A DNA stretch of 12,872 bases from a virus (Duplodnaviria > Heunggongvirae > Uroviricota > Caudoviricetes), in IMG/VR virus record IMGVR_UViG_2737471845_000023; one strand, written 5' to 3'. Both the position numbers and the translations under genes were made by a program. Below the pieces are notes generated by a model. The model had not been told where the DNA came from. It made no database searches and was given only the letters and a program-made list of their open reading frames with translations. Shown in pieces: positions 1-9,815 of the stretch; within the stretch, counting starts at the first letter, position 1; every line of letters starts with the position of its first letter.

Positions 1-79
1 CGAATAGAGCGGAATACGCACATAGGCGGGTTCAAGCATCAGCGGCTCATTAAAAGCCATGCTGGCAATATGCGGGAGA

Positions 80-3780: not shown

Positions 3781-3806
<26 letters not shown>

Positions 3807-4326
3807 TCAGCAACCCCGGTATCAGTTCATCCAGCGCGGCTGCTTTGTTCATGGCTTTGATGATATCCCGTTTCAGGAAATCAACATGTCGGTTTTCCAG
3901 TTCCGGAAAACGCCGCTGCACCGACAGGGGGATCCCGTCGAGAATACTGGCAATTTCACCTGCGATCCGCGACAGCACGAAAGTACAGAATGCGGTTTCC
4001 ACCACTTCAGCGGAGTCTCTGGCATTTTTCAGCTCCTGTGCGTCGGCCTGCGCACGCGTAAGTCGATGGCGTTCGTACTCAATAGTCCCTGGCTGGAGAT
4101 CTGTCTCGCTGGCCTGCCGCAGTTCTTCAACTTCCCGGCGCAGCTTTTCGTTCTCAATTTCAGCATCCCTTTCGGCATACCATCTTATAACGGCGGCAGA
4201 GTCATAAAGCACCTCATTACCCTTGCCACCGCCTCGCAGAACGGGCATTCCCTGTTCCTGCCAGTTCTGAATGGTACGGATACTCGCACCGAAAATGTCA
4301 GCCAGCTGCTTTTTGTTGACTTCCAT
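3781..4326 (-). CDS. Nu1: terminase small subunit (lambda gpNu1), 181 aa
   Basis: 181-aa ORF MEVNKKQLADIFGASIRTIQNWQEQGMPVLRGGGKGNEVLYDSAAV... recognised as lambda Nu1 (winged-helix DNA-binding N-terminus); sits directly downstream of cos. Confidence 0.97.
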
Positions 4327-4560
4327 TGTTCATTCCACGGCCAAAAACAGAGAAAGGAAACGACAGAGGCCCAAAAGCTCGTTTTCAGCACCTGTCGTTT
4401 CCTTTCTTTTCAGGGGGTATTTTAAATAAAAACATTAAGTTACGACGAAGAAGAACGGAAATGCCTTAAACCGGAAAATTTTCATAAATAGCGAAAACCC
4501 GCGAGGTCGCCGCCCCGTAACCTGTCGGATCGCCGGAAAGGACCCGCAAAATGATAATAA
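4327..4560 (-). other. cos: lambda-type cos packaging site: cosB (Nu1-binding R1-R3 repeats), cosN (12-nt cohesive-end sequence at 4504-4515), cosQ-side flank
   Basis: Plus strand 4504-4515 reads AGGTCGCCGCCC, the reverse complement of the lambda left cohesive end GGGCGGCGACCT, with flanks cccgcg / cgtaacctgtcgg matching lambda. Three copies of the Nu1-binding motif CGTTTCC(T/G)TTCT lie between cosN and Nu1 (about 4347-4365 rev, 4394-4409 fwd, 4441-4460 rev). Confidence 0.9.
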
Positions 4561-4714
4561 TTATCATCTGCATGTCACAACGTGCATCTACGCCATCAAA
4601 CCACGTCAAATAATCAATTATGACGCAGATATCGTATTAATTGATCTGCATCAACTTAACGTAAAAACAACTTCAGACAATACAAATCAGCGACACTGAA
4701 TACGGGACAACCTC

Positions 4715-4948
4715 ATGTCAACGAAGAACAGAACCCGCAGAACAACAACCCGCAACATCCGCTTTCCTAACCAAATGATTGAACAAATTAACATCGCTCT
4801 TGAGCAAAAAGGGTCCGGGAATTTCTCAGCCTGGGTCATTGAAGCCTGCCGCCGGAGACTGTGCTCAGAAAAAAGAGTTTCTTCTGAAGCAAACAAAGAA
4901 AAGAGTGACATTACTGAATTGCTCAGAAAACAGGTCAGACCAGATTGA
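4715..4948 (+). CDS. small ribbon-helix-helix (Arc/MetJ/CopG-like) DNA-binding protein, 77 aa; probable YnfO-like cos-proximal ORF
   Basis: ATG ORF with Arg-rich N-terminus MSTKNRTRRTTTRNIRFP followed by a strand-helix-helix pattern (NIRFPNQMIEQINIALEQKG / NFSAWVIEACRRRL). An equivalent ORF is present at the lambda right end in the same position and orientation, as I recall it. SD is weak. Confidence 0.7.
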   Translation: MSTKNRTRRTTTRNIRFPNQMIEQINIALEQKGSGNFSAWVIEACRRRLCSEKRVSSEANKEKSDITELLRKQVRPD

Positions 4949-5005
4949 AGCAATTTAGATAATCGTGCAGACTACGCCCCCTCATATCACATGGAAGGTT
5001 TATCT

Positions 5006-5416
5006 ATGGATCAGGTAGTCATTTTTAAACAAATATTTGATAAAGTTCGAAACGATTTAAACTATCAATGGTTTTATTCTGAGCTAAAACGTCACAATGT
5101 CTCACATTACATTTACTATTTAGCCACAGAGAATGTTCATATTGTATTAAAAAATGATAATACAGTGTTATTAAAGGGCCTAAAAAACATTGTGTCTGTC
5201 AAATTTTCAAAGGATAGGCATCTTATAGAAACGACCTCTAATAAGCTGAAATCCAGAGAGATCACATTTCAGGAATACAGAAGAAACCTTGCTAAAGCAG
5301 GAGTTTTTCGGTGGGTTACAAATATCCACGAACAAAAAAGATATTACTATACCTTTGATAATTCATTACTATTTACTGAAAGCATCCAGAAAACTACACA
5401 GATCTTACCACGCTAA
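5006..5416 (+). CDS. ydfO: DUF1398-family protein YdfO-like, 136 aa (ORF-track start at 4991 is probably an N-terminal over-extension)
   Basis: [49 protein letters not shown]... recognised as Qin prophage YdfO. ATG at 5006 has GGAAGG about 8 nt upstream. AT-rich, low-GC moron-like composition. Confidence 0.85.
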
Positions 5417-5567: not shown

Positions 5568-5741
5568 TCAGATTAAATTAATCTTGACATCATAGCTTTC
5601 AAGACCCGTCATTTTTTCCCGTGCGGTAAACTGAATACTGGTAACTTCTTTCCCGGTCTTTTTCTTAAGTTCAATAATTTTTTTTGTTATATATTCAGAA
5701 ATATCTGCTTCTGCTTTTGTTTTTAAGTTTTCAATATTCAT
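5568..5741 (-). CDS. gnsB: GnsA/GnsB-family small protein, 57 aa
   Basis: ORF below the track cutoff, translated by hand: MNIENLKTKAEADISEYITKKIIELKKKTGKEVTSIQFTAREKMTGLESYDVKINLI. Matches E. coli GnsB (Qin) as I recall it. SD GAGGAA immediately upstream; an alternative ATG one codon upstream at 5744. Confidence 0.85.
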   Translation of the reverse strand: MNIENLKTKAEADISEYITKKIIELKKKTGKEVTSIQFTAREKMTGLESYDVKINLI

Positions 5742-5912
5742 CATTTCCTCTTTTAGTCTGTTATGACTTTCCAGTTACACAGTAAGTCGATTATATGGTG
5801 CAAACGTGTAAAAGATAAGATGAAACATCGCAATAATCAACATACGATAGTCTAAATTTTACACAAACAGACAAAGAAAATTTTCCTGAATTATCAATAC
5901 AATAGCATCAAA

Positions 5913-6208: not shown

Positions 6209-6414
6209 TTCATTTTCACTTTTTTAAATCCAACGACAGACGGCTGGCATTTAAGTATTGTGAAATATTATCAAATGTAATCATCATTGATTTACAAAAG
6301 ATACATTTTGCCCCGAAAGGATTCATGTCAGAAACATCAAAAGATGATGTTCTATACTGGGAACCATGACAACACGGGCATCTAAAGTGAATATGGTTTG
6401 TAATATTGTCTACC

Positions 6415-6627
6415 TCAAAGCGCCACTACATGAACAGCGGCAGGACCTTTAGGTCCGTTCTCAATACCAAATTCAACTTCCTGATTCTCAGTTAATGTTT
6501 TGAAATCGTTGCTCTGAATTGCTGAGAAATGGACAAACACATCTTTGCTGCCATCTTTCGGCGTGATGAAACCAAAACCTTTTTCAGGGTTAAACCATTT
6601 CACTAAACCAGTCATTTTGTTAGACAT
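6415..6627 (-). CDS. cspI: cold-shock protein, CspA family (CspI), 70 aa
   Basis: [70 protein letters not shown] with the RNP1 motif KGFGFI and RNP2-like VFVHF; matches K-12 CspI as recalled. SD AAGGTAATAATTATG. Confidence 0.93.
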
Positions 6628-6990
6628 AATTATTACCTTTTGAAGAAATTAGCCCTTGGGCAGAATGGTCCGAAAAAAAATATCAGAGAGAAAAACCAAC
6701 AAGGAAATCTCAAGAGGTACAAATAATAAAATTATAACAATGACTGCTTCAGATAAATTTGTAACAAACCAGAACACCATTAACGCATGATTAACCACCC
6801 ATAGCAAGGATTACTTTTGTAAAGAAAAACACAGCAATGAAAGAATAGCTTTATTTATTAATAATAACGTGTCATTCTGATTAAGACCTTTTATCTTACC
6901 CTTAAGATTTCAGGAATTTTGGCTCATGGAAGAGTCCTTTTTATTTAAATTTTACATTCCGCGATGTAAATGTTCCGATTTAATATTACC

Positions 6991-8014
<1,024 letters not shown>

Positions 8015-8018
<4 letters not shown>

Positions 8019-9016: not shown

Positions 9017-9299
9017 TTGAGATTGTGGTGCTTTTTGTGGGAGTCATCCACTTACGCACTTTGTTTTGCCATGCCAGCAGTTAGCTTCTGCTGTAAAACT
9101 ATTCATGCAGCAAACCTGCACTTCACCACAATGGTTAGCATACTTTTCCTGATTAAGATTTTGCCAAATATGCTAGCCATTGTTTCATGTATTGGACCTC
9201 CTTACTTTTTATTAAAGAGATCCAATATTCACTACTCTGTCCGTATCTCTACTCAGGCATCAGCCTTCTTCGTTATCGTATACAGACGAGCGATGAATT

Positions 9300-9515
9300 T
9301 TAATCAGTAATGATGACATTTGCTGCTGCAGGACCTTTAGCACCACTCTCTATAGAGAAGGTAACCTTTTGACCTTCAAATAAGGTTCGATAATTATCAT
9401 TCTGAATCGCAGAAAAATGCACAAACACATCTTTACTACCATCAACAGGAGAAATAAAGCCGAAACCTTTATCAGCGTTAAACCATTTTACTAAACCAGT
9501 CATTTTATTTGACAT
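9300..9515 (-). CDS. cspB: cold-shock protein, CspA family (CspB), 71 aa
   Basis: [71 protein letters not shown]; matches K-12 CspB as recalled. SD AAGGAA. Confidence 0.93.
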
Positions 9516-9815
9516 TCTACATTCCTTAACTTGAGCCTTTCGGCATAAATGGTTTGCATAACAGAAACGACTTCGTACTTAATTGGAGAGACTCAAAGAA
9601 GGAATAAGTGAATAACACCTGAAATGAGAACTGCTTTAGTAAACTACTTCGTATATCGTCTGTTCTTCAAACCGACGCAATCATTAACGCATAGTTGAAC
9701 ATATGAAGCAATGTTTATTTTAGACATCCAGCCATCTTCAACCCCATCAAAAAACTATAGCTTTCTTCAGGAACGTGTGTATAGTGCGCCAAGTTATCAG
9801 TATTAAGGAATTTTT

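Follow-up and report, generated by a model that had tools for sequence, protein, structure and literature searches.

The closest described relatives of the locus analysed here are sites in cryptic prophage remnants of Escherichia coli K-12 that have been mapped as targets of two host global regulators, Fur and FNR. For Fur, a site of 22.3 bits was placed at −233 of nohA, with a second, weaker and overlapping walker of 12.6 bits 6 bp from the main site; the nohA site was gel-shifted by 150 nM Fur, and a corresponding nohB cluster of 25.3 bits was predicted only (Chen et al., 2007; PMC2189734). According to the account given in that paper, a Sau3A fragment carrying the nohA site had been selected in vivo for Fur binding (Vassinova and Kozyrev, 2000). 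For FNR, chromatin immunoprecipitation combined with microarrays (ChIP-chip) gave peaks at nohB and at nohA/ydfO, a site 5'-TTAAGTTGATGCAGATCAATTAAT-3' was predicted for nohA and nohB, and the purified FNR variant D154A shifted the nohA/B fragment in an electrophoretic mobility shift assay (Grainger et al., 2007; PMC1802558). Both papers treat the sites as chromosomal nohA/nohB targets and make no mention of phage or cos. The locus that we compare with them lies in a 12,872-nt stretch of tailed-phage DNA (IMG/VR record IMGVR_UViG_2737471845_000023; hereafter the window), at positions 4520–4714, between the cohesive-end site of a lambda-type prophage and a small open reading frame (ORF) of the YlcI/YnfO family. 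An initial annotation had noticed a palindrome and a repeated ATCTGC(A/G)T motif there and had considered them as candidate operators of a ribbon-helix-helix (RHH) protein encoded by this ORF, or alternatively as packaging-termination elements. We consider it highly probable that the region is a cos-proximal regulatory spacer with sites for the two host global regulators, and not a set of operators for the RHH-like protein. Both sites have already been characterised in the K-12 prophage remnants, and the biology is to this extent largely known.

The palindrome had been described as near-perfect, with the form ATGATAAT-A-ATTATCAT at 4551–4567; these coordinates are exact, and the palindrome is actually perfect. 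Perfect palindromes of the type 8-N(0–3)-8 occur in only 0.7% of dinucleotide shuffles of the 195 bp from 4520 to 4714, and about 0.9 perfect palindromes with 8-bp arms are expected in the whole 12.9-kb window. The window contains a second perfect 8-1-8 palindrome, GGAAAAAC-N-GTTTTTCC at 7825–7841, within a lysozyme-like ORF (7485–8018). The core of the palindrome in our region, TGATAAT-N-ATTATCA, is a perfect match to the Fur 7-1-7 inverted repeat TGATAATnATTATCA. The Fur box extends over 4547–4567: the 19-mer at 4547–4565 matches GATAATGATAATCATTATC at 16 of 19 positions, which is the best match in the window and a score reached in only 2 of 200 shuffled windows, and the perfect 7-1-7 TGATAATAATTATCA at 4552–4566 is unique in the window. 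A second Fur cluster was looked for at 4606–4648, where no 19-mer matches at 13 or more positions. The centre of the palindrome, position 4559, is 233 bp away from the ATG of the terminase small subunit gene Nu1 (at 4326, the reference point for the −233 offset), and an alignment with K-12 gave the same offset in Qin (nohA) and in DLP12 (nohD, formerly nohB). Table 4 of the Fur study prints the nohB cluster at −133, and the sequence puts the DLP12 site 233 bp from the nohD ATG; the printed figure is probably a typo or reflects another start annotation (Chen et al., 2007; PMC2189734). The 19-mer of the window is identical to the DLP12 (nohB/nohD) copy, and lambda and Qin carry GTGATAATGATTATCA, likewise a perfect 7-1-7, which in lambda is found at 48452–48466. 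Judged by the orthologous copy, for which Fur binding has been shown, the palindrome is a Fur box, and Fe2+-Fur dimers would be expected to bind it at 4552–4566, 7 nt from the packaging-termination site cosQ.

The FNR box, TTGAT-CTGC-ATCAA at 4641–4654 (centre 4647.5), contains the second of the two ATCTGCAT copies (4644–4651) and had gone unreported in the initial annotation. It is the sole perfect match to TTGAT-N4-ATCAA in the window, with 0.04 expected per window, and the published FNR 24-mer TTAAGTTGATGCAGATCAATTAAT equals the minus strand of 4636–4659 with 0 mismatches. Both half-sites are intact in 87 related loci, 80 of them identical and 7 differing only in the spacer (CCGC), which FNR does not contact, and 4 further loci have one half-site mismatch; the distance from the box to the ATG is fixed among the related loci. 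In lambda, the FNR box is located at 48364–48377. By analogy with the identical 24-mer, for which binding has been shown, we identify the second ATCTGCAT as the core of an FNR site. The centre of the box lies 67.5 bp before the ATG of the ylcI-like ORF, and 41.5 bp from the centre lies position 4689. A candidate −10 element on the plus strand, GACAAT at 4676–4681, has its centre 31 bp from that of the FNR box, and by geometry only it would place a start at about 4688–4689. Read in the light of established FNR promoter architecture, this geometry fits a class II FNR promoter for the ylcI-like ORF, in which FNR at −41.5 of the putative start would activate the ylcI-like and DUF1398 moron genes anaerobically. 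In K-12, ylcI is transcribed according to RNA-seq (ybcW-ylcI excludon). Matches to nohB in a study on sigma factors by systematic evolution of ligands by exponential enrichment (SELEX) lie downstream of nohB and were set aside as irrelevant.

As to the ATCTGC(A/G)T repeats, we judge it quite likely, jointly with the Fur and FNR readings, that they consist of the core of the FNR box and two chance resemblances arising from minority single-nucleotide polymorphisms (SNPs). The second direct copy of ATCTGCAT had been located correctly, whereas the first is found at 4566–4573 on the plus strand, one base off the claimed 4565–4572. This first copy abuts the Fur box, overlaps the position of the weaker K-12 Fur walker and needs the minority allele G4570. 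The inverted copy TGACGCAGAT at 4621–4630 and the hyphenated dyad GCAGAT-N13-ATCTGC at 4625–4649 had been described correctly; TGACGCAGAT is complementary to ATCTGCATCA (4644–4653) at 9 of 10 positions, and its GCAGAT owes its perfect match to the minority allele A4629. At the first copy, lambda, Qin and DLP12 have ATCTACAT, and at the dyad arm they have GCAGGT. Among 73 related loci, the haplotypes at 4570/4629 are A/G in 56, G/G in 11, G/A, the type of the window, in 5, and A/A in 1; the alleles thus assort in all four combinations, and no more than 5 of the 73 have the ATCTGC triple. As the first copy and the perfect dyad arm are created by the minority alleles G4570 and A4629, the repeated motif is a rare allele combination and not a conserved feature. 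Furthermore, an 8-mer direct repeat arises in 36% of shuffles of 4520–4714 and is therefore no more than expected by chance. A repeat search also returned an inverted repeat of ATCAATTA (4613–4620) and TAATTGAT (4638–4645), spanning 4613–4645, whose right arm overlaps the left FNR half-site; it is invariant in the near-identical ylcI-linked module. Covariation in the dyads of 4568–4714 is precluded, as the 87 ylcI-linked loci (31 unique sequences) represent one near-identical module.

The palindrome travels with cosQ, not with the RHH gene. cosQ is the heptamer AGGACCC (reverse complement of GGGTCCT) at 4539–4545, corresponding to 48473–48479 in lambda, and the same heptamer is cosQ in the curated record of phage 21; this element, defined as the 7-bp GGGTCCT about 17 bp from cosN, is distinct from the motifs of the initial annotation. 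We collected 134 lambda-type cos modules by an IMG/VR pattern scan for the cosQ context, together with fetched phages. The Fur palindrome is present with at most 3 mismatches in 114 of them, 4–8 nt past cosQ and in 16 unrelated right-flank clusters, and as a perfect 7-1-7 in 82; the right flanks with the palindrome include those of lambda, 21, phi80 and N15. With one representative per cluster, the positions of the palindrome are 80–100% conserved, the A-rich spacer between cosQ and the box varies in length (4–8 nt) and sequence, and conservation fades about 7 nt past the Fur box. In BLAST comparisons, the homology to phi80, 21, N15, Stx1a phages, mEp237, HK225 and others ends just past the palindrome, with unrelated sequence beyond. 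The right flank in phi80 and N15 is the 3' end of a late-strand gene: in N15 (locus L054, 48–62), the right arm of the palindrome includes the stop codon of gp59 (57–59, minus strand), so that this arm is also under coding constraint, and in phi80 (locus L052) the homologous coding sequence ends at locus position 71, a few bases past the palindrome. The remaining 20 modules (about 15%), among them that of the isolated phage IdasGreatGrand, have no palindrome and no substitute within ±400 bp, and these 20 modules indicate that the palindrome is not essential for packaging. Palindrome-free modules, such as loci L138, L152, L157, L065, L080 and L180, have other sequence directly after cosQ, which is annotated as coding in IdasGreatGrand.

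A possible mode of action of the Fur box is suggested by a sigma-70-like promoter on the minus strand, directed toward cos and Nu1. It covers 4551–4578, with the −35 element GTGACA (4578–4573), a spacer of 16 nt and the −10 element TATCAT (4556–4551), it reached 10 of 12 in the promoter scan, and its −10 falls within the Fur box. The predicted leftward transcript would start in cosQ and cross cos toward Nu1, and Fur covering the −10 would result in iron-dependent repression of leftward transcription. Fur repression of this promoter would be the most economical mechanism for the window. The promoter form is found in 52 of 80 perfect-palindrome modules and is missing from other right-flank contexts. 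A conservation of the leftward promoter across cos contexts was considered and rejected, as the −35 element is confined to the ylcI-linked flank. Rfam gave no match in the region, and no full match to the IHF consensus WATCAANNNNTTR or the CRP consensus TGTGA-N6-TCACA was seen in an inspection by eye only, with no tool scan made.

Several observations weigh against these regulatory readings. Lambda and Qin have only a weak form of the leftward promoter (GTGATA/TATCAC), and as the promoter is absent from other right flanks, it cannot account for the conservation of the Fur box across phages. Relative to the putative rightward start, the Fur box is at about −130 and thus unsuited as a classical repressor site there. 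No plus-strand promoter passes the promoter consensus scan, and the candidate −10 GACAAT matches at 4 of 6 positions. A lacZ fusion of the nohA/B fragment was low in activity and depended on fnr only marginally (Grainger et al., 2007; PMC1802558). The primers of that study map to the minus strand of 4831–4851 and to 4324–4348 (HindIII end), which means that the fusion reads toward nohA only, and the paper names neither ynfO nor ylcI. As to Fur, the oligonucleotide that was gel-shifted has the Qin/lambda allele, which is unlike the window at 2 of 19 positions.

Other explanations have to be weighed against Fur and FNR sites. RHH proteins commonly autoregulate, and the motifs do lie on the cosQ side of cos and directly upstream of the ORF (4715–4948), as had been stated, so that the palindrome and the ATCTGC motifs could be autoregulatory operators of the YlcI/YnfO protein. 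The RHH assignment of this protein is plausible from models: an AlphaFold2 (AF2) model based on a 20-sequence alignment shows a predicted local distance difference test (pLDDT) score of 70–82 for residues 11–50, with an extended segment (13–18) and helices at 19–32 and from 37 onward, and the top Foldseek matches in the PDB are all RHH proteins (StnY/CopG, MazE9, Arc, NikR, ParD), with root-mean-square deviations of 1.2–1.7 Å over 35–38 residues. However, none of these matches is significant (E-values of at least 0.7), the profile match of the ORF to a CopG chain has an E-value of 1.2, a sequence search against the PDB gave nothing significant, and the single-sequence AF2 model was poor (pLDDT 57). 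At least 15 of the contexts in which the palindrome accompanies cosQ have no ylcI gene (among them phi80, 21, N15, Stx1a phages and mEp237), and the palindrome is a perfect Fur match whose ortholog binds Fur; minority SNPs, which occur as four haplotypes beside the same RHH N-terminus, underlie the first ATCTGCAT and the GCAGAT arm, and the second ATCTGCAT is accounted for by the FNR box. Furthermore, both cos and the motifs are missing upstream of the more distant YlcI homologs, those of Tatumella, Rouxiella and a satellite-like island that carries integrase and primase, and the initial annotation had itself named a lack of the repeats where the ORF is conserved as speaking against its proposal. 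Nothing ties the YlcI-like protein to the palindrome or to the ATCTGC motifs, and we regard operators of this protein as very unlikely here; what holds of the proposal is that the region contains protein-binding sites of the operator type, namely for Fur and FNR.

The palindrome could also be an accessory of lambda-type packaging or of the handling of DNA ends, if Fur or the sequence itself slows the terminase before cosQ or organises the first-injected end. Its position 4–8 nt from cosQ in 85% of the sampled modules, whatever the right flank, and the collapse of conservation about 7 nt beyond would agree with this, its conservation cannot be traced to a promoter kept in all contexts, and the phi80 record labels the whole homologous 55-bp block as "cosQ; aka R4 region". 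However, the modules without the palindrome, including that of IdasGreatGrand, argue against it, and a spacing to cosQ that varies by 4 nt speaks against a fixed stereospecific contact. Saturation mutagenesis by Wieczorek and Feiss in 2001 reportedly defined cosQ as the 7-bp GGGTCCT alone. The variable spacing, the dispensability in about 15% of the modules and this definition weigh against an essential role in packaging. The termination element is cosQ, which lies outside the palindrome, and the suggestion that the palindrome itself terminates packaging has to be dropped; an accessory role in packaging we consider unlikely. As a last alternative, all of the motifs might be functionless chance features of an AT-rich spacer. 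The direct repeat that so often recurs in shuffles, the expectation of nearly one perfect 8-bp palindrome per window, the lack of conservation of the ATCTGC repeat, a ylcI-linked module that is near-identical everywhere, so that its conservation says little, and RNA folding that is not significant on either strand (4600–4720, plus, z −0.5; 4520–4720, minus, z −1.3) are all compatible with this. It is nevertheless improbable that a perfect Fur 7-1-7 and a perfect FNR box should fall within 100 bp by chance, given the shuffles and the expectation reported above, both orthologous sites bind their proteins experimentally, and the palindrome, unlike its flanks, is kept in diverged cos modules. An origin of all motifs by chance therefore appears extremely improbable to us.

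The ORF downstream of the Fur and FNR sites encodes a protein of 77 aa on the plus strand (4715–4948), which belongs to the YlcI/YnfO family (Pfam DUF3950, E-value 2.7e-21) and is so annotated in relatives. It is followed after a gap of 42 nt by a DUF1398 (YdfO/YbcV-like) ORF at 4991–5416 on the same strand (Pfam E-value 1.7e-46); the gap contains no plus-strand terminator, the gene order is that of K-12 Qin, and the two ORFs are probably co-transcribed. In lambda, a 64-aa ORF of the YlcI/YnfO family begins at 48303 on the complementary strand (locus L002) and is missing from the annotation of NC_001416, which has no feature at the lambda Fur box (48452–48466) or FNR box (48364–48377) either; the lambda DUF1398 homolog is annotated there as "head protein" (lambdap78), which looks like a misannotation. 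Many "YlcI" matches in unrelated taxa were left out of the alignments because they appear to represent lambda spike-in or control-DNA contamination or error-laden reads. Dozens of such matches (loci L011–L041, L043–L048; proteins P0014–P0120) come from assemblies of unrelated organisms, such as Streptomyces, Cohnella, Pedobacter, Staphylococcus and a spider; the contigs concerned measure about 3.5 kb and share about 98% identity with the lambda right end, and many of the matches have frameshift errors. In two proteins (P0190, P0208), DUF3950 is fused to a Terminase_2-like helix-turn-helix (HTH) domain (weak Pfam and PDB 2cmp match), and one such fusion (locus L178, 3001–3390) is part of a satellite-like island that also encodes integrase and primase. 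YlcI/YnfO proteins are further listed for capsid-forming phage-inducible chromosomal islands (cf-PICIs) of E. cloacae in a paper from 2026. This listing and the DUF3950-HTH fusion hint at a packaging-related role of the family.

The window as a whole is a lambda-type prophage in reverse orientation, with the genes for portal, W, terminase A and Nu1 on the minus strand; Nu1, the homolog of nohA and nohD, occupies 3781–4326 (Pfam Phage_Nu1, E-value 2.4e-101). Positions 4330–4877 are 95.6% identical to the cos and right-end region of lambda, and a search of 5426 complete E. coli genomes found the same 634 bp in 4635 of them. The cosN cohesive-end 12-mer AGGTCGCCGCCC, read directly at 4504–4515, is the reverse complement of lambda bases 1–12. 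The element AACCTGTCGGATCGCC at 4519–4534 is a direct repeat that has ACCTGTCG in common with a cosB R element at 4390–4397, and in the terms of the lambda literature it is R4-like. To the right of the cosQ region follow the YlcI/YnfO (DUF3950) ORF, the DUF1398 ORF and then gnsB-like and csp-like genes, an order that corresponds to nohA-ynfO-ydfO-gnsB of K-12 Qin. A GnsA/GnsB-family ORF is located at 5568–5744 on the minus strand, and Rfam identified two full-length cspA thermoregulator leaders, also on the minus strand, at 9284–9676 (158.8 bits) and 6388–6773 (112.8 bits); with cold-shock-domain ORFs downstream of them (9300–9515 and 6415–6627), the late region thus has two cold-shock moron cassettes. 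At about positions 1200–1500 of a locus from Escherichia sp. MOD1-EC7003 (L010), cosN, cosQ, the Fur box, the FNR box and ylcI are kept, and the cosB/Nu1 side is swapped for unrelated AT-rich sequence; as read from the sequence, this is a recombination or decay breakpoint immediately left of cosN.

The reassignment of the two motifs to already mapped host regulators avoids their misannotation as RHH operators or packaging signals, and it also concerns lambda itself, which has a perfect Fur box and a perfect FNR box next to cosQ, upstream of its unannotated 64-aa ylcI-like ORF. Should the rightward FNR promoter indeed exist, the ylcI-DUF1398 morons would be prophage genes induced under anaerobiosis and present in 4635 of 5426 complete E. 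coli genomes, and the ylcI-like/DUF1398 morons of lambda might then represent an FNR-activated operon for gut anaerobiosis. With regard to Fur, the pairing of its box with cosQ across diverged modules, without a conserved promoter, suggests that what happens at cos may be linked to the iron status of the host. It is conceivable, if rather unlikely, that host Fur, bound a few base pairs before cosQ, has been selected as an accessory that couples lambda-type cos function, or transcription across cos, to iron; Fur might then serve as a roadblock that aids the terminase at cosQ, or would gate read-through into the terminase/head operon. If so, Fur would have a part at the termination side of cos like that of IHF at cosB, and the perfect Fur box beside cosQ in lambda, 21, phi80, N15 and Stx1 phages, regardless of the neighbouring genes, would be explained. 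A literature search on Fur in the context of phage cos (cos site, terminase, prophage) found no paper on the topic.

In comparison with known systems, the window repeats resemble RHH repressor operators, such as those of Arc/Mnt of P22, CopG and MetJ, in that a small RHH-like gene is preceded by short repeats, inverted or direct; unlike such operators, however, they are uncoupled from the gene, not conserved as repeats, and explained by the Fur and FNR consensus. With lambda cosQ and the "R4 region", as known from the Feiss laboratory and the GenBank records of phi80 and phage 21, the locus shares the same conserved block on the right-end side of cosN, but the palindrome differs from the 7-bp cosQ in that it lies outside of it, beyond a spacer that varies, and about 15% of the modules do without it. 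With the FNR target of nohB and nohA/ydfO, the window has an identical 24-mer in common; that study assayed a fusion directed toward nohA only (Grainger et al., 2007; PMC1802558), and the putative class II geometry toward the ylcI-like ORF is a proposal of ours. Finally, the Fur sites of K-12 nohA (Qin) and nohB/nohD (DLP12) occupy the same position, between cosQ and ynfO or ylcI and at −233 from the ATG of the Nu1 homolog; the K-12 sites are in cryptic remnants, whereas the late and packaging region that holds the site of the window is lambda-type and apparently intact, and the predicted leftward promoter of this allele (GTGACA/TATCAT) is a better one than that of Qin or lambda.

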